From the NCBI GenBank assembly GCA_964548115.1, contig CAZJPQ010000003.1, positions 490 to 64,489 on the forward strand: a DNA stretch of 64,000 bases. Direction: 5' to 3'. How positions within the stretch are numbered: position 1 is the first letter of the stretch; each line of letters starts with the position of its first letter. The translations under genes and the position numbers were made by a program. Source of the stretch: an uncultured Planctomycetaceae bacterium. Lineage in GTDB: Bacteria; Planctomycetota; UBA8742; UBA2392; JABWBM01. The notes under the pieces are model-generated. The model made no database searches. It had not been told where the DNA came from and was given only the letters and a program-made list of their open reading frames with translations. Shown piece by piece: positions 21,907-50,559 of this stretch.

Positions 21907-22773
21907 ATGGCAGAACAACCCAAAGAACTTCGTACCCGCATTCGTTCCGTAAATTCCACCAGAAAAATTACAAAAACGATGGAACTCGTGGCCACCTCAA
22001 AAATGAAACGTGCCCAGGACCGAGTTAATGCAGCCCTTCCTTATACGAGTAAACTCAGCGAACTTTTAGGTGAAGTTATCGGCTCTGGGGTACAAACATC
22101 TCAACCGCTTTTAGAACAAAGACAAGATGTTCGTAACATTTTAGTCTTCCTTATCACAGCAAATCGCGGGCTCTGTGGTGGATACAACGCCAATGTTATC
22201 CGCCACGTCAAACAATTTATTCAAGATCAAAAAGAACAAAAGCGCGAAGTCATTCTTGATGTGCTGGGCAAAAAGGGAATCGGCACTCTCAACTACCAAG
22301 GTTATAGTATTCGTCATACTCACACGGACCTTGGAGATCGTCCAGGCTACCAGGATGCCCTGCGCTATATCGAGCCTTTACGGGATGATTTTCTTAAAGG
22401 AAAGTGCGACGAAGTTTATATTGCCCATACTCAGTGGCTGAGTGCAGCTTCCCAAAAGCCTCGCATGCTACGAGTACTGCCCATTGAAGGAGAGAAGCGT
22501 ACGGGAGTTACCCGAGATTTTATTTTTGAGCCCTCTCCAGAAGAACTTCTAGCAGCATTACTGCCTACCTATTTAACACAAACCATGTATACCGCTCTTG
22601 TCGAATCTCTTGCAAGCGAACACGTTGCTCGACGTACTGCCATGAAAAGTGCCACCGATAATGCTGACGAAATGATTACCCACTTGACTCGCAACCTGAA
22701 TCGAGCTCGTCAAGCACAAATCACCCAAGAAATTGCAGAAATTGTTGGTGGGGTTGCTGCCCTTGAGAAATAG
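21907..22773 (+). CDS. atpG: F1Fo ATP synthase gamma subunit
   Basis: N-terminal IRSVNSTRKITKTMELVATSKMKRAQ and C-terminal RQAQITQEIAEIVGGVAALE are classic gamma-subunit ends. No other atp genes lie within 20 kb either side. Confidence 0.9.
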   Translation: MAEQPKELRTRIRSVNSTRKITKTMELVATSKMKRAQDRVNAALPYTSKLSELLGEVIGSGVQTSQPLLEQRQDVRNILVFLITANRGLCGGYNANVIRHVKQFIQDQKEQKREVILDVLGKKGIGTLNYQGYSIRHTHTDLGDRPGYQDALRYIEPLRDDFLKGKCDEVYIAHTQWLSAASQKPRMLRVLPIEGEKRTGVTRDFIFEPSPEELLAALLPTYLTQTMYTALVESLASEHVARRTAMKSATDNADEMITHLTRNLNRARQAQITQEIAEIVGGVAALEK

Positions 22774-26043: not shown

Positions 26044-29000
26044 ATGACAAAACCACAACTCTCCTTTTCACCTTACTCCATACTCGTTGCACTTATAAGC
26101 TTGACTTTGGGTTCCCACGCCTGGGCGGACCATAGTCAATACCGCGGGAACGCAGCCAGAAGCGCTGGACTTGAGCAAACAGTTGACCTCTCTGACAGCT
26201 CAAAACTGACAGAACTTTACAGCACGACCCTTACCGCAAGTAATATCTTTGCTGAACCCCTGATCGTTGACCAGCTCTTGATTGTCGTAAGCGAAGGCGG
26301 TGATGTTATTTGTGTTGATATTGATTCAGGAACACCGGTTTGGTCTCAGAAGCTTAGCTCTGGAATCCTTGCTACTCCTGCAGTGGATAAAGGACGGCTC
26401 TTCGTTGGAACCACTGGTGGAAAAGTTGTAGCTTTCCAATTGAGTGATGGAGAAATACTTTGGGAAGTTTCACATGGTGGCTACCAGCTTGGTGCTCCTG
26501 TTGTCATTAATGATAAAGTAATTGTCAGCCCTGGCTTTGGAAGCGATTATCTCTTTGCTTATGACCAGAGAGATGGCTCTATTGTTTGGCAAGCCCCTGT
26601 CTCGCGAGACGTCCAAGGCTCACCTGCAGTCTATGATGACAAAGTTATAGTCGCGCTGCCAAACGGCGAAATTGACTGCTACCTCCTTAGTGATGGTTCA
26701 AAAGCTTGGGCTGCCCCTGTTCAAACCCAAGGAATCTTTTATGCCATCAGCCCAATGATTGTTCATGATTCTGATAGTGGAGAAATCTACGTCTATGTAG
26801 CCCCTGGCGGAGATGTAGAACGTAATAGCTCCAACTTATCATTGACTGGCTTCAAAGGTTATATGACCTATCGCATCAAGCTTGATGATGGAAGCTATGA
26901 TCGCTTGATACCAAGTCGAGATGCTTCTTATGCTGCCAGCAGCAGAAGCGCTCGAGCTAATGGAAAAACCAGCTCTGAAGTTGAACCAGAAGCCGATCCA
27001 TTGCGGGATATTCCCCACGACCTTCAAGCAGAACTCAACAAACTTACAGATCTTAACTCTATGCTCAGCGTTATCGAAGGCTACGAGCAAGAATACGGCC
27101 TTGACCTCAGTGAGCTTAAAGCGGCTTTAAAAGAGCGTAGTGATAATGCTAGCAGTTATTTAAAAGCTCAAGAAAAGGCAGAAGGAGCTGGAAAACGCTC
27201 CTCCGCAAGTTCAAGAGCAAGCCTCCCTGGCAGCTCCTTTGATGCGAACTGGCCAAGTGGTAATTCCGTTCGACCTGCTCCAGCAGCCTATCTTGAGCGA
27301 GGCAACAGTCGTTTTCTAGCAATTATGATGCGAGAAATTCCAAGCATTTCGATTAAAGCCCGGACTCTCCTTTTTAGTGTTAATGCAAGCACATTTGGAG
27401 AGCTTTACTGGCACTACAGCAGTGATAGTCTTGATACTCCAGCGACTATTAACAGTCAAGGGGCTTTACTTGTTCCAAATCAAAATGACCCCCATGGCGC
27501 CTATATGATAGCGCCCCTGGGTCGAAACATTGCGATCTTTGATGCTGCTTCTGGCAATACTCCTATTTTTGAAATCGAAATGCCCGGCATTGTTTATCAA
27601 ACACCAGCAATCGCAAATGGCTACTTTGCGATTACTGACACCAGCGGCCACCTTAAAGTTTTTTCAACAAACAACTCTGCACCTCAAGCACCAGTCATAA
27701 CAAGCCCAAATCAAGATCAAGATATCCTGCTGCCTGCTTCTGTAAAAGCAAGTTGGAACGCGGCTATTGATGATAGCGCACCTGTTGACATTCGCTATCA
27801 ATTCCGTTACGTTTTTAATGGTGATCTTGAAACCGAGTATACAGAAATTGAACTGCCTGCTGGCACAACCGAGTATATCTGGCCAACAACACCTGCAGCT
27901 GATACTACCGTTAGTTTCCAGGTACGAGGCATTGACGAAAATGGAGCGGTTGGATTTTTCAGCCCTGCTCGCAGCTTTACATTTCAAAAAGACATCATTC
28001 CCCCAGCTGCCATCAGCAACCTCGTAACAAGTTCAGGCCCGCTTGAAATTCAAGGCACTTTCGACCCAAGTCCTGACGAAGCACCCCAAGGAAGTGCTGA
28101 TGTTGCAGGCTACCGTATCAATGTCATTGAACAAGGAACAAATAACAGCTTTAGCCTTGAGATTGGCTTAACACATTCTTTCACCCTCAATGGCTCAGAT
28201 CCAAACACTCCAATGGATGCCAACCACCAATATGAGATTCATGTGGTTGCTTACGATGGACGTAATAACGAATCCCCAGCTCTAACGGTTTACGCTCAAC
28301 CAGACCCCGCAAATGATACCGTGGATACTCTTGCCCCATTCATTCTCAGTGCACACTTACTTGATCTTGATACTAATGGTGCTATTGAAACCGTTGAGCT
28401 GGTCTTCAGTGAGCCACTTGACAGTACTCTCGGAAATTTCGACTTTCAAGGCTTTGCGCTTGATGGCATAGCCCCAAGCAACGCCATTGGCCCAGTTAAC
28501 GAAACCTTAACCCTTAAGTTTGGAAACGGAGTAAGTGGTACAGATCTTAAAGAACTTACTTTTGATGCTTCAACTGGCCTGGTTCGCGATCTTTCAGGAA
28601 ATCTCCTTAAAACTCTCGGGAACAACGGTCTTAGTGAAATTGATGCTGCAAACCCCACATTCCTACCCCATACTTTAGAAGCCCATGATGACACTGGTAA
28701 TGGCAAACCAGATCGTATTACCGTTGACTTTTCTGAAGTTGTTGATGCTTCAAGCCTCGATCTTGATGATCTTGCATTACTCCAAGATTCCCAAGGGGCT
28801 TCCCTTAATGCACTTGATATGAGGCTGCTTGCAAACTCTATTACTCTCGAAATTGAGTTGGATGGTCAAAAAGGTGTGCTTGGAAAACCCTTGCTTGACT
28901 TTATTGATGATGGTGACGGCACCTTCTTCAGTGATGTTGTCGGCAACACACTTGTAAACAATCTTTCAAATCAACCCCCAAGCATTCGTTTAAGTCTTCA

Positions 29001-30909
29001 CCCAGGGGCTCATATGGCTCCTGGCTTACTTTCTTTGAGCACTACTGGAAGCAGCGACCCTGATGGAGATGATACTCAGCTTGTATACGACTGGAGCGTT
29101 GATCTCTTTGCTTCCAGCCAAGCTCCTGTCTTTTACCCATCAGGACAAAATTCACTTTCAACTTCTGAACAAGACGTTCAACTCATTCTCGTTGAGCCTG
29201 GAACCTATGGTTTTCGTCTCCAAGTCAGGGATGAACAGGGCGCTATTACCGAAGAAACAATTCAAGTGGTGGTTGCTAATGAAGCTCCTGTAGCCCATGC
29301 TGGGCCCGATCGCTTTTCTGAGCAGGCTCAAGGTTTAATCCCACTCATTGGCGAAAACAGCGCCGATGCAAACTCCTCCTTAAATTACAACGATATCCAA
29401 AGTTATCTTTGGAGTATCGTTGAAGCGCCAAGTGGTGCTTTTAACATCTTGAGTCAAACAACTTCAGCGCGAGCCTTCTTTGATACTTCAGGAGCACCAG
29501 TGGGGACATATCGCATCAATCTTGAAGTAAGAGACTACTCTGGTGTCAGCAGCACTGATGAGCTTTTCGTACATATCTTTGATGGCACCCTCAATATCCC
29601 TCCAACGGCTTATGCTGGACCTGACCGTTCATTACCACTTCAGGCAGGACAAGCCTCTTTAATACTTCAAGGAGGGTTCAGCTATGATGATCAAAAAACA
29701 ACTTTGAGCTACCAATGGGATCTCATCGAAGGTGATAGCACAAAAGTCCAAATGCATGATACCTTCAGTGCAACGACGAATCTTTCAATCCAAGCTCCTG
29801 GAAGCTACCAATTTCGTCTTCGCGTCAATGATGGCAGCTATGAAAGTGATGACTTTGTCTGGGTTGAAGTTTTTGACCCACAGGGTGATTATATTCCAAG
29901 TGGAGAGGTTATAGTTCCAGACTCAGCTTCCATAGGAGAAGTTTTTGAAATTGATATGAGTTCTTGCGTTGATATTGATGGCTCACCTGTGCTCGTTGAA
30001 CTCGAACAAAATGCTGGGCCTCGCTTAATCCAAGTTGAAGGCGCCCAAACAGCCAAACGCAAATACCTTGCTTATAGTTCAGGAATAGTTGAACTTCTTG
30101 TTCGCATTAACGATGGAGAGCACCGGTCTGCACCTCAATCGCTTCAGATTGCAATCCAAAGTGGAAGTAATTCTGCACCTGAACTTCAGATTGATTTGCC
30201 GAATACCTTAGAAATTGCTCAAGATCTTCATTTTGATCTTCAAGGCAGCAACGACAGCGAAGCCGATCCAATCAGCTTTGATTTCTATCAACTTGCTGGG
30301 CCTGCAGCTTCTTATGCAAAAGTTGCTGGACAAAACATAACTTTTAAAGGATTCCTTCCTGGAAACTATGCCTTTGAACTACGTGGGTCTGATGGTTTTT
30401 CACCGGCTTTGCCCCTTCGCGTTTCATTCACATTAGAAAGTGCCTCTGCGCATTTGCCTGAAGCCAGCATCACAACATCAACCCAAAGCCTTGATCTTGC
30501 CGCCAGCAATTCCTTTGCACTCTTCGCCGAACAAATCGTCGATCTTGACGGTGATATTGTCTCTTTCCTCTGGGTTCAAAATGCTGGCCCACAAGCTCAA
30601 ATTCTTGATCCGACAGCAAGCTCAACTGGTGTTGAACTCCCCCCAGTTGAAGGAGTTTATGTCTTTGAACTTTTCATTAATGATGGGACATTCCAAACAA
30701 GCGCTGGAACAACTTCACTATCTGTCTTTAATAGTGCTGCTCTTAAAGGTGATGTTTCTGCCCAGGAAGAAAGTTCTGGCTGCTCTTTGATCGGCGGAAC
30801 CTACGGAGGAATTGGATTTTCCTTAATCATACTTGGGATTATAGGCGCTGTCATTGGAATTTATATGAGTCTTATTCAGCGTAAAAAGCTGCCAAAACAA
30901 TCGGTATAA
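26044..30909 (+). CDS. Giant (1621 aa) secreted cell-surface protein: signal peptide, PQQ-type beta-propeller repeats, Fn3-like module, multiple PKD/Ig-like repeats, C-terminal Cys-containing TM sorting signal
   Basis: Signal peptide MTKPQLSFSPYSILVALISLTLGSHAWA. PQQ-like repeats (DGEILWEV, DGSIVWQA, DGSKAWAA). Repeated AHAGPDR / AYAGPDRS PKD-type motifs. C-terminal SSGCSLIGG-TM-RKK. Confidence 0.85.
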   Translation: MTKPQLSFSPYSILVALISLTLGSHAWADHSQYRGNAARSAGLEQTVDLSDSSKLTELYSTTLTASNIFAEPLIVDQLLIVVSEGGDVICVDIDSGTPVWSQKLSSGILATPAVDKGRLFVGTTGGKVVAFQLSDGEILWEVSHGGYQLGAPVVINDKVIVSPGFGSDYLFAYDQRDGSIVWQAPVSRDVQGSPAVYDDKVIVALPNGEIDCYLLSDGSKAWAAPVQTQGIFYAISPMIVHDSDSGEIYVYVAPGGDVERNSSNLSLTGFKGYMTYRIKLDDGSYDRLIPSRDASYAASSRSARANGKTSSEVEPEADPLRDIPHDLQAELNKLTDLNSMLSVIEGYEQEYGLDLSELKAALKERSDNASSYLKAQEKAEGAGKRSSASSRASLPGSSFDANWPSGNSVRPAPAAYLERGNSRFLAIMMREIPSISIKARTLLFSVNASTFGELYWHYSSDSLDTPATINSQGALLVPNQNDPHGAYMIAPLGRNIAIFDAASGNTPIFEIEMPGIVYQTPAIANGYFAITDTSGHLKVFSTNNSAPQAPVITSPNQDQDILLPASVKASWNAAIDDSAPVDIRYQFRYVFNGDLETEYTEIELPAGTTEYIWPTTPAADTTVSFQVRGIDENGAVGFFSPARSFTFQKDIIPPAAISNLVTSSGPLEIQGTFDPSPDEAPQGSADVAGYRINVIEQGTNNSFSLEIGLTHSFTLNGSDPNTPMDANHQYEIHVVAYDGRNNESPALTVYAQPDPANDTVDTLAPFILSAHLLDLDTNGAIETVELVFSEPLDSTLGNFDFQGFALDGIAPSNAIGPVNETLTLKFGNGVSGTDLKELTFDASTGLVRDLSGNLLKTLGNNGLSEIDAANPTFLPHTLEAHDDTGNGKPDRITVDFSEVVDASSLDLDDLALLQDSQGASLNALDMRLLANSITLEIELDGQKGVLGKPLLDFIDDGDGTFFSDVVGNTLVNNLSNQPPSIRLSLHPGAHMAPGLLSLSTTGSSDPDGDDTQLVYDWSVDLFASSQAPVFYPSGQNSLSTSEQDVQLILVEPGTYGFRLQVRDEQGAITEETIQVVVANEAPVAHAGPDRFSEQAQGLIPLIGENSADANSSLNYNDIQSYLWSIVEAPSGAFNILSQTTSARAFFDTSGAPVGTYRINLEVRDYSGVSSTDELFVHIFDGTLNIPPTAYAGPDRSLPLQAGQASLILQGGFSYDDQKTTLSYQWDLIEGDSTKVQMHDTFSATTNLSIQAPGSYQFRLRVNDGSYESDDFVWVEVFDPQGDYIPSGEVIVPDSASIGEVFEIDMSSCVDIDGSPVLVELEQNAGPRLIQVEGAQTAKRKYLAYSSGIVELLVRINDGEHRSAPQSLQIAIQSGSNSAPELQIDLPNTLEIAQDLHFDLQGSNDSEADPISFDFYQLAGPAASYAKVAGQNITFKGFLPGNYAFELRGSDGFSPALPLRVSFTLESASAHLPEASITTSTQSLDLAASNSFALFAEQIVDLDGDIVSFLWVQNAGPQAQILDPTASSTGVELPPVEGVYVFELFINDGTFQTSAGTTSLSVFNSAALKGDVSAQEESSGCSLIGGTYGGIGFSLIILGIIGAVIGIYMSLIQRKKLPKQSV

Positions 30910-37530: not shown

Positions 37531-39528
37531 TCAGCTGTCAGAAATTCCAAGCTCGAAAAGCCGGTTTTGAGCCTCGAGGTCTGACGGGTAAGCTTCAAGA
37601 TAGCGCCGAAGCAAGTTGAGAGCTTCACTCTGTTGCTCAATATTCAATAAAAGTTCTACTTCAAAACGATTGAATAGAGCATCATAAGGCCAACGCTTAT
37701 AGGCAAGCTCTAGAATTTCTTGGGCTTGCGCCCATGCCTCCTCCCTCATTGCAAGGGCTAACACATGATAACCAACCTCAGGCCCATAGTCCACGAACAC
37801 AAATTCCTGGTAAAATAGAAGCAGGTAAAGAGCGAGTGCTTGAAAAGGTTGAGCCTGATTTTCTGCCTCAAGAGCAAGGGTAATTAACGTGCTCTCATCC
37901 CGCTCCCCCGCCTGATAGCGGATTTCGGCAATTGTAATTTTTGTTGCTTCAAGCTGAAAAAGCTCAAGTTGAGCAAGAATGAGATGCTTACGCTTCGGAG
38001 TTAAGCTATAAGCTTCTAAAAAAAGCTTTGAAATAAAATGTGCATCTTTTGTTTTTAAACCATCTTCCAATAGCGCTTGAGCATAGTATTCGACAAAGCT
38101 TATGCCCTCTTCATCAATATGCTGAGGAAAAGATGTATAAAGCTGCTCTAAAAAAACCTTTTTCTCTTTATCTTTAAAAAGCGAGAGCGCTTGCTCCAAA
38201 TGCTCTGGAGGGATGGTCTTTATATCAATATATCCAATAATTTTTCGCAAAAGAATATCGTGTTCTAAGCTACGGGCAGCTTGGAGAGTTAAGAGCCTTT
38301 CAACTGATTGTTGGAGCAAAGAGTCCTCTTTGTTTATCTTCTCCTGATGCTTTAAATAAAGTTGAAGAACTTTTTCAAAACCTCTACCAAGAGTTTCCTC
38401 ATGAAGCTCTCGTTGAAGCAACGCTTCAATAAATTGTCCAAAAAGCTCATGAAAAGAAATAAGCTGCTCTTCCTCGAAAGACAGTTTTACCTGTGCGAAG
38501 GTCTTAAGAAGAGGGAAATAACGAACCTGTTCTTTTTCTATCCTCTTGAGAAAGACCTCTTCTAACGGTAAGCCCAGTTTTGAAAGCAAATAGAAGAATG
38601 TCATTCCCAAGGCAGGTTCTTCCGAACCCTGGCTGGCCAAAACTTCCGTTGGAAGCAGGCTCGTATGCTCTTCATAAACAAGAAGGCCTGTACTGCGCCT
38701 GAGAAATTCAATCCATACTTGTGTGAATTCTTCTGGCTTTCTATCTGCATTCAGAAAATCCTTATGTTCCTCCTGAAAAACTTCTAACTCTTCTTTCAAA
38801 TGAAATATCTGCTCTTTTGATGATAAGCGGTCTTCAGCTGAAACAAAGATGTAATCAAGCTCTTCAAGAGAAGTAAAAATAGAAGAGTGATCTTGCTTCG
38901 AAGCCAATAAATTTTTGTTCTTATCATCTCTACGAAAAACATCACCCTCCCCCTTATCAAATAATTCCTTGGAAGCGAGCTCATGTAGTGACTTATCTTT
39001 TTGTTCTAAAGCCTCCGATACCACTTCCTGTTCAAAATATGTTCTGCCTAGTAAAAAAGCCGTAATTAAAGCTATACAAAAAAGGACTCCGAAGCTTAGA
39101 GAGAGCAAGTGTCTTCCAAAGAATTCAAAGAATTGTCGTTTTTTTCTTTCTGCCTTCTGGATGAATTCTTCTTTCAAAGAAATCTTGGGGTCTTTTTGTT
39201 GCCCTTGGACGAAAGATGCAGATTCTCGTTGTAAATACTTCAATAAGATGCTGCTTTCTTGAAGCAAGCCCTCGATCCTGGAAATAAGCTGGTTCTGGTT
39301 GAGCGAACGAAGCCTTTTAACACACAAAGCAAACTCTTGCCCCTTCTTCTTTGGTATCATCTGAAAAACGTGAGCAAATGATTTTTCAATTCGGCTTATT
39401 TGCTCAGAATAATCAAGAAAGAGCGCACTCAAAGCTTCCGGTGTTTTTTGATATGTATTCTGAATGACTTCAAGCAAAGCACAAAGTCTCTCCCAATCAC
39501 GAAGAAATGTTTTCAAAGTATTGTTCAT
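37531..39528 (-). CDS. Membrane-anchored, largely alpha-helical protein of unknown function
   Basis: ATG at 39528 (MNNTLKTF) preferred over the track's TTG at 39534. Single TM helix LLSLSFGVLFCIALITAFLLG after a ~130-aa N-terminal region. ~500 aa helical/TPR-like C-terminal part. Convergent with 35542..37515 across a 15-bp gap. Confidence 0.6.
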   Translation of the reverse strand: MNNTLKTFLRDWERLCALLEVIQNTYQKTPEALSALFLDYSEQISRIEKSFAHVFQMIPKKKGQEFALCVKRLRSLNQNQLISRIEGLLQESSILLKYLQRESASFVQGQQKDPKISLKEEFIQKAERKKRQFFEFFGRHLLSLSFGVLFCIALITAFLLGRTYFEQEVVSEALEQKDKSLHELASKELFDKGEGDVFRRDDKNKNLLASKQDHSSIFTSLEELDYIFVSAEDRLSSKEQIFHLKEELEVFQEEHKDFLNADRKPEEFTQVWIEFLRRSTGLLVYEEHTSLLPTEVLASQGSEEPALGMTFFYLLSKLGLPLEEVFLKRIEKEQVRYFPLLKTFAQVKLSFEEEQLISFHELFGQFIEALLQRELHEETLGRGFEKVLQLYLKHQEKINKEDSLLQQSVERLLTLQAARSLEHDILLRKIIGYIDIKTIPPEHLEQALSLFKDKEKKVFLEQLYTSFPQHIDEEGISFVEYYAQALLEDGLKTKDAHFISKLFLEAYSLTPKRKHLILAQLELFQLEATKITIAEIRYQAGERDESTLITLALEAENQAQPFQALALYLLLFYQEFVFVDYGPEVGYHVLALAMREEAWAQAQEILELAYKRWPYDALFNRFEVELLLNIEQQSEALNLLRRYLEAYPSDLEAQNRLFELGISDS

Positions 39529-39742
39529 GGACAAGAAGCTCTAAAAAGAATCCATAACTCTTTTGTAATAACACAGGCTCAACACAAACTTTTTAAAACA
39601 CTCAAAAGGCAATAAACAAATCTTCACGTTTTTTATAACATGTGCTCTGGCAAGCATCAAAAAATGATCTTGTTTTCAACGAGCTCAAAGCCCCAAAAAA
39701 CCCTGGGGAGGAACATGCTTCCAGTTTATTGAGAGAACTATT

Positions 39743-40513
39743 ATGCGCTTCTGTTCATTATACACTTCTATTCCTCTGATTATACTCTGCTCTTTTTTTT
39801 CTTCCCTGCTCCTGCATGTCCAAACACAAGCCGAACAAAAGACCTCTCAACCCTTCACAACCGTTTTGATTGTCAGTAAGCCCAATCAACAAGGGTTTCT
39901 CACAATAGCTGCAGGCTCGCTGGAATTCAGCAATAAAGAACTTAGCCTTGTTCGCGAAACACTTCCAGAAGGCAACAAAAAAGTTCTCAGCGAAAACCTT
40001 TCTGAAGAATTTCAGGACAAGATTTCTTTTGAAGAGAATTACCGCTATATCCTTCAACATAAAAATCAAGTGCTGGCAACTCATACTCTCTTTTTGCTGG
40101 ATGAAAAACACCACAAACTCACCTTTCTTGGAGGTTCCCAAGAGCGTGGATTTTTCCAAATTCACCACGCAGAGCAGCCTGAGATCCGCTGCATGATCAA
40201 AAAAGGAGAAAAAATAACCCATAAAAGCTTATCAAACCAAAATAAGCTTTTAATAACTCAAGCCCCCTTTGAACTTCTCTCAATCACTTTGGAATCCTAT
40301 ACCCCTACACAGCCAAAACTACGTACTATTCACAGAAAAACAGGAGCCCCTCTTTATGATTTACGGGGAAACCCTCTCAAAATTCCTATTCAGGAGGGCA
40401 GCGAACAGAGACATAAGATATTTGTCGCTCATATCAGAGAAACTCTTAAGCCATACAATGATTACTACCTTCAAGAAGGGGAGAGCGTTTATTTTCAAAA
40501 TCTCGGCGATTGA
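39743..40513 (+). CDS. Secreted protein of unknown function
   Basis: Signal peptide MRFCSLYTSIPLIILCSFFSSLLLHVQTQA. 256 aa. No recognisable motifs. Confidence 0.55.
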   Translation: MRFCSLYTSIPLIILCSFFSSLLLHVQTQAEQKTSQPFTTVLIVSKPNQQGFLTIAAGSLEFSNKELSLVRETLPEGNKKVLSENLSEEFQDKISFEENYRYILQHKNQVLATHTLFLLDEKHHKLTFLGGSQERGFFQIHHAEQPEIRCMIKKGEKITHKSLSNQNKLLITQAPFELLSITLESYTPTQPKLRTIHRKTGAPLYDLRGNPLKIPIQEGSEQRHKIFVAHIRETLKPYNDYYLQEGESVYFQNLGD

Positions 40514-40665
40514 GATAATGAACATAAAAAAGAATGCTTGATAAGTTACCTTTGAACAAGCGAACAAAAAAACTTTGGATCTTTATTCATAGAGGTTTTT
40601 GAGCTAGACTTTAGCTTTGCTAAAAGTTTTTGTCTCTATACAAAGTCTTAAAGAAAAGAGTTGTA

Positions 40666-41646
40666 ATGGCTAGCTATCAAGAACTCCAAGGAAAAAATGT
40701 TCGTTCCTCCTTTTTGCTGATTGGAGTCGTGACAACTCTTATGCTTGTCGGAGGCTACCTTTTTGGAGCAGCACTTGCGGGCCCAGAAAATCCTTATGCC
40801 ATGTGGATTGGGGTAGGAATTGCAGGCGGACTTGCCAGCATTCAAGCTTTGATTTCCTGGTTTGCTGGAGCAGATATTGTTCTCAAAGTCAATCGAGCAA
40901 AAGAAGTGAGCGAGCACGACAGTGAATTTCGCCAGCTTCGAAATATTGTAGAAGAGATAAAAATTGCAGCTGGTCTTCCCATGCCTCGCGTTTATGTCAT
41001 CCATGACGATTCGCCAAACGCTTTTGCCACTGGACGCAACCCAGAAGATGGGCGTGTTGCATTTACAACTGGACTTCTACAGCGCTTGAATCGAGATGAA
41101 CTTCAAGGTGTGGTCGCCCATGAACTTGCCCATATCAAAAATCGAGATATTTTATTTGCAACCATTGTAGGCATTATGGTTGGAAGTATTGCTATTCTTT
41201 CCGATATTATGCTGCGCTTCTTTTTCTGGAACAGTTTATTTGGAGGAAGGCGAAACAGTGACAATCGTTCTGGAGGAGGCCAACTCCAAGCCATCCTGAT
41301 GCTGGTAGGGCTTATCTTTGCAATTCTAGCCCCCATCGCCGCCATGCTGATTCAGTTCGCAATCTCTCGCCAGCGTGAATACTTAGCCGATACAAGTGGC
41401 GCACATTTCACCCGCAACCCAAGTGGACTAGCAAGTGCTTTACTCAAAATCTCAAGTGCAGCTCAGCCTCTTCGTTCTCCTAACCGAGGGACTGCTCACC
41501 TCTTTATTTCAGATCCTTTTTGCCACCAGGCCCGCTCGACAAAAACAAAAGGAAGTCTTTTTTCAACCCATCCACCAATCGCAAAACGTATTGAGCGACT
41601 CCAAAAAATCGGATCAATGGATATGCAAGAAAGTCCGCAACCTTAA
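40666..41646 (+). CDS. htpX: Zinc metalloprotease HtpX (M48 family)
   Basis: HELAHIKNRD (HExxH). Downstream E in EYLAD. Two N-terminal TM helices. ATG at 40666 preferred over the track's TTG at 40630. Confidence 0.9.
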   Translation: MASYQELQGKNVRSSFLLIGVVTTLMLVGGYLFGAALAGPENPYAMWIGVGIAGGLASIQALISWFAGADIVLKVNRAKEVSEHDSEFRQLRNIVEEIKIAAGLPMPRVYVIHDDSPNAFATGRNPEDGRVAFTTGLLQRLNRDELQGVVAHELAHIKNRDILFATIVGIMVGSIAILSDIMLRFFFWNSLFGGRRNSDNRSGGGQLQAILMLVGLIFAILAPIAAMLIQFAISRQREYLADTSGAHFTRNPSGLASALLKISSAAQPLRSPNRGTAHLFISDPFCHQARSTKTKGSLFSTHPPIAKRIERLQKIGSMDMQESPQP

Positions 41647-41708: not shown

Positions 41709-43586
41709 ATGAATGCTTTCTCTCAAAATACTGAAGCTCTCAAAAATATTCAACCAATCTTGGCAGAAACACTTGAGACAGCAACAAGCTTAGCCCAATA
41801 TCTTCAAGAAACTCCAGATGGCTCCCAAACCTTACGCAAAAAAGGCTTTGAAGGTGCCTGGCTTCAAAGCAGACGTGCGCCACTTCAAGAAGCCAGGCGG
41901 ATGGTTGAAAAAATTCAGCTTAAGCCCTTGCAACCTTGTATCGTAATCGGTGTAGGCCTTGGGTATGTCATCAAAAACCTGATTAAAAATTCTCCTTCAA
42001 CACAAATCATTGTACTTGAAAATGATCTTAATTTGCTGCGAACCGTACTTGAGCTCCATAATTTCTCCAACTCTATTCGACAAGGGCGTTTGAGTTTTGC
42101 TCTTGATTTACCTGGCCAACCTATTTCAGCTGTACTTGATTTCTTCGCAGAAGCCCTTAATTATCACGGCTACCAAAGTATATTTCACGCATATACGCAA
42201 AACGATCGTAATTATAAGGATCTCTTCTCAGAGCTGGGAAATTGGGTGCGTCTTCGGGCTGTTGATATTCGAACTCAAATGTTTCAATCTCGGGTATCTC
42301 TTGAAAACCTGATCAACAATCTTCCCCATTATCTTCAGTTCCCGGGAATAACGGAATTTAAAGATTGCCTCCGTGATGTTCCTGCCGTGATGGTAGGCTC
42401 AGGCCCTTCTTTGAATCGAAATATTAACGTGCTTAAAGAGTATAGTGGCCATGTTTTTGTATTGGCTGTTTCTTCTGCGCTTCAGCGAATTATGAAAGAA
42501 GGGATTCCTGTTCATGCCACAAACATTGTTGATTACTCACGTTTAAGCTCGCGCTATTTCGTTGACCTTCCTGGAGAAGCTCCTCCTCTTTGGGCACATC
42601 CTCGTGCAAGCTCAGAAGTTCTTGATCTTTACCAGGGGCCAAAAATACTCCTTGATGATGAGCTCTATCGTAAGCTGCTTGAAGCAACCGTTCCTGACCA
42701 CGGAACGTTCATCGCCCAAGGAAATAACGTCTCCCACTACGCATTTCTTATCCTTCAACACCTTGGCTGCAATCCCATTATTTTCTGTGGCATGGACCAA
42801 GCCTACAGCTTTCACACAACACATACACCAGGAAGTCCTTTTCATGATGATTGGGTCGCAGCAAACAACCGCTTCTTCAATCATGAGCTCTCAGAACTTA
42901 TCATGTTAACCTCGCTTGTTAACGAAACCCTGACAACAACCGACATGTACGGCAATACAATTCTTACTGATAACCTTTTTGACAGCTCTGCAACCGTGCT
43001 TGAACAACTCGTTGGATTCTTCCCTGAAACGACTGTACTCAACGCAACAGAAGGTGGCAGAAGACTCAAAGGAGTAAAAGATCTTAGCCTGAGAAATGTT
43101 TTAGAACAATACGCCAAGCAACCGCTCGCACTTGATTCCTATTGGGAAAAAGTCCATCTTCCTAAAAAAGCAACTCAAGCCTTTTTGCACAATGGTCTTC
43201 AAAAACTTCAAAAAATTAAAACCTTTGGAACAACCCTTCAAGAAGTATTTTCACAAGCCAAGCGCATCATTCAGAAAGCTGAGAAAAAACTCTTAAAGGG
43301 AGAAGAGCCAACAGAGCTTGCAGACGCTCTTGACCGTCTTAACGATAAACTTAATAAACAGCCTGGAGTTTATGATGCTGTTTATACCTATGCTGCTGCA
43401 GATGGCATTATCCGGCAAAAGAGTGAAGCTCTCTTAGCTGATCAGTCGATTCCTATGATTGAACGCCTTCGAACTTTAGCAAAACGAGAAAAAGCCTTTA
43501 TTATTGCGCTTGAAGAAGCATTAAAACGTTGGGAAGATCTCTTGATAAAAGGGATTGAGCGCATGAAAGAAGAGCAGGAATTTTAA
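41709..43586 (+). CDS. Maf-like (motility-accessory-factor / MptE-like, DUF115) protein; putative nucleotide-sugar or nonulosonic-acid transferase-like enzyme
   Basis: DUF115 Rossmann-like core with the signature VPAVMVGSGPSLNRNI ... VFVLAVSS ... ATNIVDY. About 625 aa, similar in size to Campylobacter/Helicobacter Maf proteins. ATG at 41709 preferred over the track's TTG at 41670. Confidence 0.65.
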   Translation: MNAFSQNTEALKNIQPILAETLETATSLAQYLQETPDGSQTLRKKGFEGAWLQSRRAPLQEARRMVEKIQLKPLQPCIVIGVGLGYVIKNLIKNSPSTQIIVLENDLNLLRTVLELHNFSNSIRQGRLSFALDLPGQPISAVLDFFAEALNYHGYQSIFHAYTQNDRNYKDLFSELGNWVRLRAVDIRTQMFQSRVSLENLINNLPHYLQFPGITEFKDCLRDVPAVMVGSGPSLNRNINVLKEYSGHVFVLAVSSALQRIMKEGIPVHATNIVDYSRLSSRYFVDLPGEAPPLWAHPRASSEVLDLYQGPKILLDDELYRKLLEATVPDHGTFIAQGNNVSHYAFLILQHLGCNPIIFCGMDQAYSFHTTHTPGSPFHDDWVAANNRFFNHELSELIMLTSLVNETLTTTDMYGNTILTDNLFDSSATVLEQLVGFFPETTVLNATEGGRRLKGVKDLSLRNVLEQYAKQPLALDSYWEKVHLPKKATQAFLHNGLQKLQKIKTFGTTLQEVFSQAKRIIQKAEKKLLKGEEPTELADALDRLNDKLNKQPGVYDAVYTYAAADGIIRQKSEALLADQSIPMIERLRTLAKREKAFIIALEEALKRWEDLLIKGIERMKEEQEF

Positions 43587-43808
43587 AGTCACCATTAAAA
43601 GGATAATATCATTCAAACCACTATTGATGCTTATATTGAAATTCCCGAAACAGAGGATGTCTTAAAAGCCTTTGTTGGAGATGAAAGTTATTCTCCTTTT
43701 AGTTTAGCGTTAAGTGCACTTCTTCACACCCGCAGTGCATTCCGATCAATCTTCCTGCCCTGGCCAGGTGGCAAAGAAAACCTTCCAAGCCATTCCGGCA
43801 TCCAGGCA

Positions 43809-45278
43809 ATGGTTCAAGAGGCTAAGATCAAGGTTATCGAACCATCACAAGCACCCGATATTGATGCACGAAAAGTTGGAAACGCTCTTCGAAAGTGGAA
43901 CCACACAAGTTCTTTAGCGGGTCTTCTGATGACAACGGATCACTGCACGTATGGAAACCCTGCACATATCCTTCAAGCATTAGAGCCTCAAGAACCTGAT
44001 TATGTACTGGTGCTTCCAGGGCATCACGGTTTTCCAACAAGCCAAGCAATCAAGATTATCCTTGAACAAGGCTTCACTGATGGCTGGGGGTTAGGGTTTT
44101 ATATTGCTGAAGGACCAAGGGGATTAAGCCCTATTATTTGGAAAGTTTCCAGCCTTAAGGAAGTACTTGCAAACAACCTGCTTGCTCAATCCGCTTTTTG
44201 GGGGCGCTGGCACTATTGGGTTAAAACAACAGCTTCAATGCCTTCACGAGTTACTCGTTGTCGACGAGACTTTGACCTTCGCACCCGCAGAGGAAGAGCT
44301 TTTTGTTCTGAAGTCGCTTCCGCTCTTCATGCAAGAAAGAAAATGCCAGCTTATCATCCAGAGAATCACACGCCTTTGCCATTGGAAGACATTATTGAGG
44401 CTGCAAACTCTTGTTTTCAGGCTTGGGTCGGTGATACTCCTCGTGATATTGAAATTGAGATTACAACCCAACGTCCACTGGAACCGAGTTATCTTCCAAA
44501 AATCAATCGTCCAAACCTCCATATGGAGCTTGCTCATTTTGAACGGTTTATCGCTCAGTGCAAGCAGGATAACGACTCTATCAACCTAACGCTCGGAGGT
44601 TTTGGTGATCCTTTAGAGCATCCTGAAGTTCTTGATTTCATTCGATCTGCGAGACCCCATGTTCAAGGCCTCAACATCCGAAGCTTTTGCTTCGAAATGG
44701 ATGAGCAAAAATTTGCAGCGCTTCAAGAAGCTGGAATTGACGTCCTTACCTGGCGTTTTGGTTACTGGGGAAAGGAAGCACACCAAAAAGCCCACGGAGT
44801 CGATGATTTTGAAAGGCTACAAGAAACTTTAAGGTCCATACGAACACAGCAACTCCACGAAGCTGAGGATGCTTTGCCGATTATTTGTCCAGAGGTTGTC
44901 AAAGGCATTATTGGAGATAAAAGCCTACTTGATTTTTGGGAGTATTGCCTTTCGCTTTTGCTTTGGCCAAGTCTTCTCAGCTATAATACTTTTTGTGGTG
45001 AGCTTCCATCTCAACAAGCTATCCCGCTTTACCCCAGTACTCGCAGCACCTGTCTTAAAATCTCAGAACAATTGATTGTTTGTGCAAATGGTGAAGTTCC
45101 CATGTGCTGGCAAGACTTCAACGCAAAGAACTCTCTTGGCAACATCAAAGAACATTCCCTACAAGAACTCTGGCATAGCCCAAAACTAACCGCTCTTCGC
45201 AACGCCCACGAACAAAAGCAATGGGATCGGGAATCTGCTTTATGTCAAAAATGTAATGAATGGTTTCGTTTGAGCTAA
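43809..45278 (+). CDS. Radical-SAM-fold/SPASM-domain protein with a degenerate radical-SAM cluster site (only one of the three CxxxCxxC cysteines present)
   Basis: C-terminal SPASM/twitch region IVCANGEVPMCWQDF ... LGNIKEHSLQELWHSP ... CQKCNEWF. GGxPL-like SAM motif LGGFGDPLEHPEV. Where CxxxCxxC is expected the sequence is ELAHFERFIAQCKQDNDSI. Confidence 0.6.
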   Translation: MVQEAKIKVIEPSQAPDIDARKVGNALRKWNHTSSLAGLLMTTDHCTYGNPAHILQALEPQEPDYVLVLPGHHGFPTSQAIKIILEQGFTDGWGLGFYIAEGPRGLSPIIWKVSSLKEVLANNLLAQSAFWGRWHYWVKTTASMPSRVTRCRRDFDLRTRRGRAFCSEVASALHARKKMPAYHPENHTPLPLEDIIEAANSCFQAWVGDTPRDIEIEITTQRPLEPSYLPKINRPNLHMELAHFERFIAQCKQDNDSINLTLGGFGDPLEHPEVLDFIRSARPHVQGLNIRSFCFEMDEQKFAALQEAGIDVLTWRFGYWGKEAHQKAHGVDDFERLQETLRSIRTQQLHEAEDALPIICPEVVKGIIGDKSLLDFWEYCLSLLLWPSLLSYNTFCGELPSQQAIPLYPSTRSTCLKISEQLIVCANGEVPMCWQDFNAKNSLGNIKEHSLQELWHSPKLTALRNAHEQKQWDRESALCQKCNEWFRLS

Positions 45279-45306
45279 ATAAAAATTCATCAATCAACCT
45301 ATTGCC

Positions 45307-45774
45307 ATGAGAAAACTAATGGAATGGAAAACATTTCTCCGCGATCAAATAGAACAAGCATATCAATCAACCCATGAGTTGATAACATTAGTTGAAGATC
45401 AAGATCTTCACTACTGTCCTGGTGATCATAATTGGATGAGGCTTGACCAGCTGCTTTGGCATATAACCATTGCGTGTGGACGATGCTGTGTTTGCATGAT
45501 TGAAGATGACTGGAGTGATAACCCCTGGCATCAACTTCCCTCTGTCACTTCTGTTCAAGAAGCTCTCAAGCGTCTTGAAGAAGACAAAGTGCTTGCCCTT
45601 GATGCCCTTGAAACTCTAAGCGAAAATGAGTTAGAAGAAAAGCTTTACGCTCCCCCCTGGGAAGCAACCCCTCAAAAGCTTGGGATTCGGTTTTACCAAA
45701 TGATAAAGCACCTTCAATTTCATCGTTTTCAACTTTTGTTTTATTTTCGACTTTCAGGTAAACCTCTCGAATAA
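45307..45774 (+). CDS. DinB/YfiT-like four-helix-bundle protein (putative metal-dependent thiol transferase/hydrolase fold)
   Basis: 155 aa. Helical pattern and the LLWHITIA histidine region resemble DinB_2. Unusual CGRCCVC cysteine cluster. Confidence 0.45.
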   Translation: MRKLMEWKTFLRDQIEQAYQSTHELITLVEDQDLHYCPGDHNWMRLDQLLWHITIACGRCCVCMIEDDWSDNPWHQLPSVTSVQEALKRLEEDKVLALDALETLSENELEEKLYAPPWEATPQKLGIRFYQMIKHLQFHRFQLLFYFRLSGKPLE

Positions 45775-49887: not shown

Positions 49888-50559
49888 ATGAAGCCCTTTC
49901 AAAAAAAAAATAGAACAAAAAATACAATCAACTTTTTGATCACTCACTTTTTCATCTTCTCTTTCTCTCTTTTATTTATGAATTGTTCAACACCAGGCAA
50001 TCACTACCCAACACCACAAGCAACTCTTGCTGCAGGGCGCCATGCCATCCAAGAAAAAAAAGCTTTGGCTTTCCTTGATATCCTTAGTGTTGAAACGCGT
50101 CAAAAACATGAGACAACTTTCTTACTCGGTTGGAAAGAGGTTCAAGATCTTTTCTCTTTTCTTGCCGAAGACGTTGAAATTGCAGAGCTTGATCAAGACT
50201 ATACCCTCGCTTCTTTTTCAGACGAAGATATACCTGAAGAATACGTATGGCCAACCCCTCATAAACCAAGCTTCCGTTTACGCCTTAAGATTCCTTATAA
50301 AGGACAAATCTATTGGGAAGATTTTCTTTTTGTTCAAGAAGTTGACCCAGAAGAAAAAAATACCAAGAACTCACAATGGATCCAAGTCGGCTTACATGAA
50401 TATCTTCGCTCACAACACCCAACTCCCTATCGCTACCAAACGCCAGGAAAATCTCTTCAAGAGCGAACAAATTGGCGCATCTTGTACCCCTACTATCCTT
50501 TTCAAAGTAAGAGCAAACTTGCAGCAACCATTGTACAAGAACTCCAGGAAGCTGAATAA
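49888..50559 (+). CDS. Lipoprotein of unknown function
   Basis: CAGGAGCGG RBS. Signal peptide with lipobox LLFMNC. 223 aa. Confidence 0.6.
   Translation: MKPFQKKNRTKNTINFLITHFFIFSFSLLFMNCSTPGNHYPTPQATLAAGRHAIQEKKALAFLDILSVETRQKHETTFLLGWKEVQDLFSFLAEDVEIAELDQDYTLASFSDEDIPEEYVWPTPHKPSFRLRLKIPYKGQIYWEDFLFVQEVDPEEKNTKNSQWIQVGLHEYLRSQHPTPYRYQTPGKSLQERTNWRILYPYYPFQSKSKLAATIVQELQEAE

Follow-up and report, generated by a model that had tools for sequence, protein, structure and literature searches.

A radical SAM-fold protein without the CX3CX2C motif, encoded next to a Maf-like glycosyltransferase gene in a Planctomycetota bacterium

The coding region at 43608..45278 (+) of the window, which is the whole stretch of 64,000 nucleotides analyzed here, is predicted to encode a three-domain protein of ~555 residues (stop codon TAA at 45276-78), in which the barrel of the radical SAM (rSAM) type has no CX3CX2C motif and is followed by a C-terminal domain with four conserved cysteines. 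This protein most likely serves as a non-catalytic partner to a Maf-type glycosyltransferase, because the family members are always encoded adjacent to, or fused with, a Maf gene. The family is a sizeable and conserved rSAM branch, in which the radical site has been lost while selection maintains the auxiliary-cluster domain, and it provides a natural experiment on Twitch/SPASM clusters without radical chemistry. Annotation in the rSAM superfamily usually follows the fold, and the current labels are misleading: the recorded product is a 'SPASM domain-containing protein', which is here a 489-residue call, truncated at its N terminus.

The rSAM-like barrel and the Twitch domain

The rSAM-like partial TIM-barrel core (44433..45017, +) is predicted with pLDDT values mostly between 80 and 95. 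When this core is compared with known structures using Foldseek, the best match is BtrN (PDB entry: 4M7T; E 1.2e-10, TMt 0.73), followed by SuiB, DesII, SkfB, BlsE, MoaA, and viperin; there are 95 PDB fold matches at E<=0.001, and the top 50 are all rSAM enzymes, with BtrN being the first. The GGxPL-type SAM motif mentioned in the preliminary description is indeed present, as GGFGDP (44595..44612, +), a 'GGE'-type motif that has been retained where strand β2 ends, and G331 and G333 are conserved to at least 90% in 114 family sequences. On the basis of the modeled fold and homology (the partial TIM barrel and the GGE-type motif), the protein is a member of the rSAM superfamily; its score for the Pfam family Radical_SAM (PF04055) is 13.2 bits, which is below the gathering score of 29.5.

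The CX3CX2C motif is absent from the entire window protein. In BtrN, the cysteines C16, C20, and C23 hold the RS cluster of this SAM-cleaving enzyme (PMC9012708), and the profile alignment shows that these positions are occupied by R, P, and L in the window protein. These three residues belong to the former cluster-binding loop, TTQRPLEPSYLP (44463..44498, +), which sits 41 residues ahead of GGFGDP and is conserved in the clade as TTxRxxxPxYxP. The remnant of the motif had previously been placed at FIAQCKQ, but the cysteine of this segment is not conserved and precedes the GG by only 12 residues. An alternative set of Cys/His residues replacing the RS cluster was considered and rejected, as none is conserved in the core. 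At other barrel motifs, TNG has become SFC in the window protein (TFG in the clade consensus), and the LDA-type motif has become RFGYWG; the motifs LGGFGDPLEHPEV, LGNIKEHSLQELW, and CQKC are also found in the protein. As judged from its sequence, the protein is without a site for the SAM-cleaving [4Fe-4S] cluster, in agreement with what was proposed initially, and it is predicted that the 5'-deoxyadenosyl radical is no longer generated.

It is practically excluded that a canonical CX3CX2C motif was lost through an error in sequencing or assembly or through a mutation specific to this strain. An independent Logan assembly (L001) is identical to positions 43588-45597 of the window over 2010 nt, so no assembly discrepancy was found; a check for such errors had been suggested for the region 43600-44600. 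The triad is missing throughout the clade and in most of the wider Maf-linked family, and the replacement residues are conserved. As all close homologues also lack the triad, its loss is not an error, and this explanation is effectively refuted; the family-wide loss is also in line with the earlier view that the protein is not obviously truncated.

The C-terminal domain (45030..45275, +) matches the Pfam family SPASM (PF13186) with an E-value of 4.9e-12 and 46.4 bits (cutoff 21.5), and it scores 26.8 bits for TIGR04085, just short of the cutoff of 27. Four cysteines of the 556-residue protein, C482, C500, C546, and C549 (codons at 45051-53, 45105-07, 45243-45, and 45252-54), arranged as C-x17-C ... 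C-x2-C, align one to one with the Twitch ligands C169, C188, C232, and C235 of BtrN. They are kept in 149-150 of 151 sequences, and the C terminus is only 7 residues past the CxxC. The seven-Cys two-cluster SPASM pattern (CX9-15GX4C ... CX2CX5CX3C ... C) is not found, as only four cysteines are conserved. The preliminary description of 'intact', 'textbook' SPASM cysteines has to be revised in this respect: it also included the cysteine of IVCANG, which is not conserved and is a leucine in 88 of the 151 sequences. From its sequence pattern, this domain is of the Twitch (abridged SPASM) type, with four cysteines for one cluster, and not a full seven-Cys SPASM domain. It probably continues to bind a single [4Fe-4S] cluster, which is plausible because the C16A/C20A/C23A variant of BtrN, in which the RS site is knocked out, still holds the auxiliary [4Fe-4S] cluster (PMC9012708).

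The N-terminal domain and the start of translation

The N-terminal domain (43608..44423, +) has a GT-A-like nucleotidyltransferase (cytidylyltransferase) fold. This domain of ~270 residues had been overlooked when the protein was taken to begin at ATG 43809. In the full-length AF2 model, it is predicted with low confidence, and it was re-predicted alone. The best match is found among the SpsF/NeuA/IspD-type cytidylyltransferases, with the Leptospira structure 6OEW. It differs from these enzymes in having no match to any Pfam family and in the P-loop, whose Arg/Lys signature is unrecognizable in the clade of the window protein: the segment here is DAYIEIPETEDVLKAF, which lacks a Gly/Arg/Lys signature, in place of QARMGSTRLPGK in 6OEW (the residue assignment being inferred from profile alignments). 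Relatives outside this clade ("group B") retain SRL- and LxDP-type cytidylyltransferase motifs.

The ATG used by the gene callers (43809..43811, +; ORF 43809..45278, +) is probably an internal Met. As was described before, no stop codon interrupts the frame over the 70 codons that precede it, and there is no ATG, GTG, or TTG in this region. These 70 codons are assigned as coding: they are aligned by five homologues of 539-581 residues (98-99% coverage of the 559-residue extended query), and a conserved DAY/DAW motif lies 3-7 residues after the start in four of the five close homologues. In the likely translation start region (43599..43613, +), a Shine-Dalgarno-like AAGGA (43599-43603) is found 7 nt ahead of ATT 43611, and translation would probably start at this ATT or at ATC 43608, by initiation or re-initiation right after the Maf stop codon. 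It is highly unlikely that the true product is the 489-residue protein, with the rSAM-like and Twitch domains and a truncated N-terminal domain. ATG 43809 is the first canonical start codon and was chosen by the gene callers, but no Shine-Dalgarno-like sequence precedes it, the homologues span the upstream 67 codons with the conserved motifs DAYIE and FVGD..YSP, and the residues encoded before it form strands and helices that are integral to the Rossmann-like core of the predicted N-terminal domain, with pLDDT values of ~90.

The Maf-like gene and the SPASM gene share one reading frame, and their junction (43584..43598, +), with the Maf stop codon TAA at 43584-86 and a second in-frame TAA at 43596-98, translates as ...EEQEF*SHH*KDNIIQ.... 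Expression of the window copy is a prediction, as it lacks a canonical start codon and follows two stop codons in the same frame; this is also a point against the explanation favored here. These features would be expected if the window copy were a recently broken maf-SPASM fusion, with nonsense mutations leaving the downstream 556 codons as an untranslated, decaying remnant. In agreement with such an event, the two open frames are spaced only by TAA-AGT-CAC-CAT-TAA, the 70 codons are without the usual start codons, and some of the closest relatives have the two proteins fused (P0009, 42-43% identity). We regard it nevertheless as unlikely, because the frame is intact for 556 codons, with 16 of the 17 near-invariant family residues and all four Twitch cysteines retained, and because the AAGGA sequence is 7 nt ahead of ATT 43611. 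The commonest arrangement among the relatives is moreover that of split, translationally coupled pairs, and a common frame is expected by chance in one of three cases.

The Maf-like protein and the distribution of the family

The gene upstream of the junction (41709..43586, +) is identified by Pfam and profile matches as that of a Maf-like (MptE-like/DUF115) glycosyltransferase. Its ORF is open from TTG 41670, and the NCBI-derived protein collection lists a product of 625 residues that begins at ATG 41709. The protein matches the Pfam families MptE-like (7.1e-30, 104.5 bits, cutoff 34.6) and Maf_flag10_N (27.7 bits), and it has the nucleotide-sugar motif GSGPSL. When a profile of 10 orthologues is compared with the PDB (the single-sequence query being uninformative), Maf (PDB entry: 5MU5) is matched at 2.4e-14 and MptE (PDB entry: 8SD5) at 7e-7, with GxGPS aligned. 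The partner gene is, by these matches, assigned as a Maf-type glycosyltransferase gene, and its product shares the MptE-like domain, part of the Maf N-domain, and the GSGPSL motif with the Magnetospirillum Maf of entry 5MU5. It differs from the flagellin nonulosonic-acid Mafs in that it is outside a flagellar or nonulosonic-acid gene cluster, with no flagellin or nonulosonic-acid genes among the scanned window ORFs, and in that it is far below the cutoff of NCBIfam FlagModPseD (NF050051; 83.6 versus 670 bits). To our knowledge, the known Mafs are not described as requiring an Fe-S partner.

The closest homologues of the window protein are from Planctomycetota MAGs, and the family has so far been found in Planctomycetota; a literature search retrieved no paper on it. 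In each of the 27 non-redundant loci in which the contig reaches upstream, the family gene is immediately preceded by a Maf-like gene, overlaps with it, or is fused to it. In annotated contigs, the upstream Maf-like gene overlaps by 4 nt, and natural Maf fusions are seen in the proteins P0009, P0011, P0013, and P0014 and in the loci L010 and L016. The pairing of the cluster-less protein with Maf is strongly borne out by this universal adjacency and by the gene fusions, in agreement with the link to the Maf-like neighbor that had been suggested earlier; the protein may be a chaperone or a substrate-binding partner, as was also put forward there. In a neighbor-joining (NJ) tree, calculated without support values, the Maf-linked group is monophyletic.

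The CX3CX2C triad is kept by only 5 of 113 full-length representatives. Among the 27 non-redundant Maf-linked loci, only L018 has it intact; the Maf-linked members with an intact motif are P0017, P0027, and L018, and the motif is also intact in L021, whose contig has no upstream context. The list of the top 150 homologues is biased to cluster-less members, since the query profile was built from these. The occurrence of intact and degenerate Maf-linked versions makes a direct biochemical comparison possible.

Possible function, related systems, and gene neighborhood

We consider it rather probable that the protein serves the Maf-like transferase as an accessory or regulatory subunit bearing a Twitch cluster, and that it is the relic of a CMP-sugar-modifying rSAM enzyme. 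The ancestor would have been a three-domain enzyme, with a cytidylyltransferase-like domain, a BtrN-like rSAM barrel, and a Twitch domain, whose probable role was the formation or modification of a CMP-activated sugar, which Maf then transferred. In the window lineage the catalytic sites would have decayed, and the protein would work as a stoichiometric accessory or regulatory subunit. The former nucleotide and SAM pockets, now lined by Arg/Pro, could plausibly have a role in stabilizing Maf or in binding either the donor sugar-nucleotide or the acceptor; in this case, the role of the cluster would be structural or that of a redox/iron sensor. With a coupling to Maf that is strict and extends to fusions, there is a partner that can be tested, and a way to approach the function of those Maf homologues that are not part of flagellar glycosylation islands. 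It can be speculated, much more tentatively, that the Planctomycetota Maf is an obligate two-subunit (or fused) holoenzyme. Its second subunit would be doubly degenerate, with a dead cytidylyltransferase and a dead rSAM barrel, keeping only the Twitch [4Fe-4S] cluster and gating glycosylation as a redox, iron, or donor-sugar sensor. To give such a subunit, an ancestral CMP-sugar-modifying rSAM enzyme, which is still intact in a few Maf-linked relatives, would have lost its radical chemistry repeatedly.

The continued conservation of GGxG(D/E)P counts against an accessory subunit, as it leaves room for the binding of some nucleotide or SAM-like ligand and for non-radical catalysis. The lack of nearby flagellin or nonulosonic-acid genes and of a conserved third neighbor is a further point against it. 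A protein that is still an enzyme, with one of the remaining pockets (cytidylyltransferase-like, ex-SAM, or Twitch) catalyzing a sugar-donor step for Maf, is a serious, though clearly less probable, alternative. Several barrel residues in addition to GGxG(D/E)P are conserved, as is the Arg-rich replacement loop (ELTTEDQLxxTxLRPRG), and the cytidylyltransferase motifs retained in group B also point in this direction, whereas the P-loop region without a signature in the clade of the window protein, the N-terminal domain without a Pfam match, and the changed TNG and LDA-type motifs argue against it. A pterin- or molybdopterin-related module, not concerned with glycosylation, would combine an MptE-like pyrophosphokinase with a nucleotidyltransferase of the MobA type and an rSAM/Twitch protein of the MoaA type. 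The match of the partner profile to the archaeal MptE, weak NTP_transf_3 (MobA-like) Pfam matches in relatives, and the presence of MoaA and the tungsten-cofactor maturase TIGR04317 among the rSAM matches are in its favor, but we give this assignment very little weight against an accessory subunit of a Maf-like transferase.

The best NCBIfam match of the window protein is TIGR04321 (spiro-SPASM; 7.6e-32, 110.6 bits versus a cutoff of 250), which is matched only at model positions 188-506. Proteins of this family and the window protein share a nucleotidyltransferase-like N-region, an rSAM barrel, a four-Cys SPASM/Twitch C-region, and a length of ~510-550 residues. The confirmed spiro-SPASM members P0143 (CNLSCVFC; 382 bits) and P0151 (CELDCLFC; 355 bits) are above the cutoff and keep the CX3CX2C motif, which is lacking in the window protein; similar, lower-scoring intact loci have no Maf neighbor, and in the NJ tree the intact loci of the TIGR04321 type do not fall within the Maf-linked group. 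BtrN, the Bacillus circulans 2-deoxy-scyllo-inosamine dehydrogenase (PDB entries: 4M7T and 4M7S), is the founding Twitch-domain rSAM enzyme and the best solved-structure match (profile 8.7e-10; TMt 0.73-0.76). The likeness includes the four aligned auxiliary cysteines and a sugar-like substrate. Besides the RS cysteines, which are replaced in the window protein, BtrN differs in lacking both the N-terminal cytidylyltransferase-like domain and a Maf partner, and the sequence identity is ~17%. Precedents for pseudo-enzymes, by analogy, are the haloarchaeal NCBIfam family TIGR04347 ('pseudo-SAM/SPASM protein') and inactive regulatory subunits with a nucleotidyltransferase fold, such as GMPPA and eIF2B gamma/epsilon. 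TIGR04347 is not matched by the window protein and only weakly by intact relatives, and the evidence for common descent does not extend beyond the superfamily.

The second rSAM gene of the window was considered as a source of the missing activity and rejected, as it is that of the lipoyl synthase LipA, and an Rfam scan of the window gave no match. A conserved third partner gene was likewise rejected, as only lineage-specific Aat/HAD neighbors recur, together with HtpX in two loci. As context, an HtpX-type M48 protease gene (40630..41646, +) is directly upstream of the Maf-like gene in the window, and Peptidase_M48 is also found upstream of the Maf-like gene in L008, one distant homologue locus.

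The radical-SAM cluster site and the Twitch domain

The protein encoded by ORF 43809–45278 (+) is a conserved radical-SAM homologue that lacks the RS cluster site and has the cysteine set of a Twitch domain and an N-terminal domain of the cytidylyltransferase fold. In its annotated form of 489 residues, it has a Pfam SPASM domain at the C-terminus (4.9e-12) and a Radical_SAM match that is below the threshold (13.2 versus 29.5 bits). The motifs LGGFGDPLEHPEV, LGNIKEHSLQELW and CQKC are present as quoted in the preliminary description, and CX3CX2C is indeed absent from the entire protein. This absence is not due to an assembly error, which had been considered, as an independently assembled Logan contig is identical to the window over 2010 nt (43588–45597).

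The degraded site had been placed at FIAQCKQ, 12 residues before the GG, and this location does not hold, the cysteine not being conserved. When the profile of the window's clade (the close homologues with an R/P/L-type loop) is compared with the PDB, the best match is BtrN (4M7T/4M7S, 8.7e-10), and BtrN IEVEVNSQC16NRTC20WYC23P is aligned with the consensus leieittkRplePsyLP, the window sequence being IEIEITTQRPLEPSYLP. In this alignment, the former site is at 44463–44498 (+), 41 residues ahead of GGFGDP, and R, P and L stand in for the three cluster ligands (C16, C20 and C23). The replacement loop is conserved in the window's clade as TTxRxxxPxYxP, with the triad R/P/(L,M,W); in group B, the remaining larger set of Maf-linked relatives, the triad is mostly D/(T,S)/R (ELTTEDQLxxTxLRPRG). 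Within the Maf-linked set, CX3CX2C is intact solely in locus L018; it is also intact in L021, a contig without upstream context. Among the 113 full-length proteins (at least 500 aa), five have the motif in the right place (P0017, P0027, P0142, P0143 and P0151). The window protein would therefore be incapable of radical-SAM chemistry.

The C-terminus is not the textbook SPASM domain with intact cysteines that had been described, as just four cysteines are conserved (C482, C500, C546 and C549, numbered for the 556-residue form, in 149–150 of 151 sequences), and the protein ends 7 residues past CX2C, so that the CX2CX5CX3C block of the seven-cysteine SPASM domain is missing. This corresponds to a Twitch domain, defined as a truncated SPASM domain binding one cluster (PMC9012708). 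The four cysteines line up with C169, C188, C232 and C235 of BtrN, whose auxiliary cluster has four cysteine ligands and survives in the C16A/C20A/C23A mutant (PMC9012708). BtrN is also the top Foldseek match of the AF2 model (E 1.2e-10, TMt 0.73–0.76), followed by SuiB, DesII, SkfB, BlsE, MoaA, EpeE, viperin and anSME. By analogy with BtrN, it is plausible that one putative [4Fe-4S] cluster is retained in the Twitch domain.

The N-terminal domain and the translation start

Residues 1–272, predicted alone, give a confident AF2 model (pLDDT 84.9, pTM 0.88), and the Foldseek search with this model is consistent with a cytidylyltransferase fold. A profile of this domain, built from 25 family members, matches IspD 2XWL (1.3e-6) and, over the whole domain, 6OEW (2.2e-6). 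Weak Pfam matches to NTP_transf_3, CTP_transf_3 and IspD are seen in 5 of the 25 members, none of them in the window domain. Where 6OEW has QARMGSTRLPGK, the window domain has DAYIEIPETEDVLKAF, and the cytidylyltransferase site of the window's clade appears to be likewise degenerate.

The frame upstream of ATG 43809 is open from 43599 without ATG, GTG or TTG, as had been claimed. One reading is that the annotated protein, starting at this ATG, is the true product. The extended 559-residue translation is, however, aligned over 98–99% by five homologues of 539–581 aa (Planctomycetota MAGs and metagenomes), four of which start 3–7 residues ahead of a conserved DAY/DAW motif (IIQTTIDAYIE in the window), and the 67 residues upstream of the ATG contribute strands and helices to the core of the N-domain (pLDDT ~90). 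Translation therefore probably starts at ATT 43611 or ATC 43608, which are 7 and 4 nt downstream, respectively, of AAGGA at 43599–43603, and the public annotation is probably N-terminally truncated. The Maf-like ORF (an MptE-like/DUF115 glycosyltransferase, 41709–43586, +) and the SPASM-like ORF share one reading frame and are parted by two TAA codons of this frame with 9 nt between them (43584–43613; ...EEQEF*SHH*KDNIIQ...), which raises the less favored possibility that the gene is half of a recently split fusion, or a pseudogene in this genome. Against this, 556 codons are intact, 16 of the 17 near-invariant family residues are kept, and relatives usually have two separate genes that overlap by 4 nt and are translationally coupled.

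Association with the Maf-like transferase

The SPASM-like protein is genetically locked to the Maf-like transferase, in agreement with the partnership proposed in the preliminary description. In all 27 non-redundant loci with a high-scoring member and upstream sequence (from Planctomycetia, Phycisphaerae and metagenomes), a Maf-like ORF, found with HMMs built in this analysis, is directly upstream or overlapping. Natural fusions also occur: six representatives (P0009, P0011, P0013–P0016) are 1136–1199 aa long, an MptE-like/Maf domain is fused N-terminally to the family in all four that were scanned (P0009, P0011, P0013 and P0014), and L010 and L016 are fused loci, too. The lower-scoring intact relatives (CNLKCIMC and similar) have no Maf neighbor. 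The homology of the partner to Maf 5MU5 (2.4e-14) is stronger than that to archaeal MptE (7e-7), and its GSGPSL motif is retained. The Planctomycetaceae genome MAG_30 has two paralogous modules, a split pair in L009 (JABWBM010000071.1) and a single fused ORF of ~1170 aa in L010 (JABWBM010000008.1).

The best NCBIfam match is TIGR04321, "spiro-SPASM protein" (110.6 bits, cutoff 250). An exhaustive profile search gave 185 representative clusters at E<1e-30, in which P0143 (382 bits) and P0151 (355 bits) are true TIGR04321 members, both with CX3CX2C; spiro-SPASM proper is thus an intact radical-SAM family among the members that could be checked. In an unbootstrapped NJ tree, the Maf-linked proteins form one group apart from the spiro-SPASM-like proteins, and the intact Maf-linked members are together inside this group. 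Several spiro-SPASM-like loci with no Maf neighbor (L059, L086, L091 and L092; also L064, L068 and L093) lack the full CX3CX2C, e.g. EVEFSATSEAKNFFSPL, which points to independent loss of the radical cluster in other superfamily branches. The database label is just "SPASM domain-containing protein", and the literature search found no paper mentioning the family or a Maf–radical-SAM association; the fold families are all known, and the pseudo-rSAM/SPASM idea is already a family name (TIGR04347).

The protein probably serves Maf as a regulatory or accessory subunit, and would be the relic of an ancestral enzyme activating or modifying a CMP-sugar for Maf, a state that would still be represented by the intact Maf-linked relatives. 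Residual non-radical catalysis is a competing explanation, and a pterin-related reading of the module, drawing on MptE, MobA and MoaA, is outscored in every score comparison made. The intact and degenerate Maf-linked pairs provide a clear experimental handle.

Genomic neighborhood and other features

The pair is surrounded by housekeeping genes, among them those for HtpX, a DinB-family protein, a TrxB-like reductase, an SDF-family sodium:dicarboxylate symporter, a PfkB kinase, LeuRS, LipA, PheT, BipA and GlmU. No flagellar or nonulosonic-acid genes were found in the scanned window ORFs, and no third gene is conserved across the loci, Aat/HAD neighbors recurring in one sublineage only and HtpX in L008 alone. 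In L017 (923–5299, group B), the pair is beside LPS-core-type genes, namely Glyco_transf_9, a GT4 and two kinases of the Kdo/WaaP family, a hint that a cell-envelope glycan, and not flagellin, may be the target. The HtpX-type M48 protease gene (40630–41646, +) is directly upstream of the Maf-like gene, as in L008 (5064–5999), a homologue locus with an identity of only 38%; the shared neighbor may be coincidental or reflect a functional link.

Over the whole 64 kb, the Rfam search detected no family, tRNAs and rRNAs included, and four sizeable ORFs have no significant Pfam/NCBIfam match: 1035–2657 (−, 540 aa), 37531–39534 (−, 667 aa), 39743–40513 (+, 256 aa) and 49888–50559 (+, 223 aa). The GC content is ~43%, and the GC skew is mostly negative along the window (cumulative −3.2). 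A gene for the ATP synthase gamma subunit (21907–22773; Pfam ATP-synt, 317 bits) has a PALP/CBS-domain enzyme gene on one side and bipA on the other, with no other ATP synthase subunit gene adjacent. The very large ORF at 26044–30909 (1621 aa) has a PQQ-like beta-propeller at the N-terminus as well as several PKD/K319L-like Ig domains, and its product is probably secreted or located at the cell surface.
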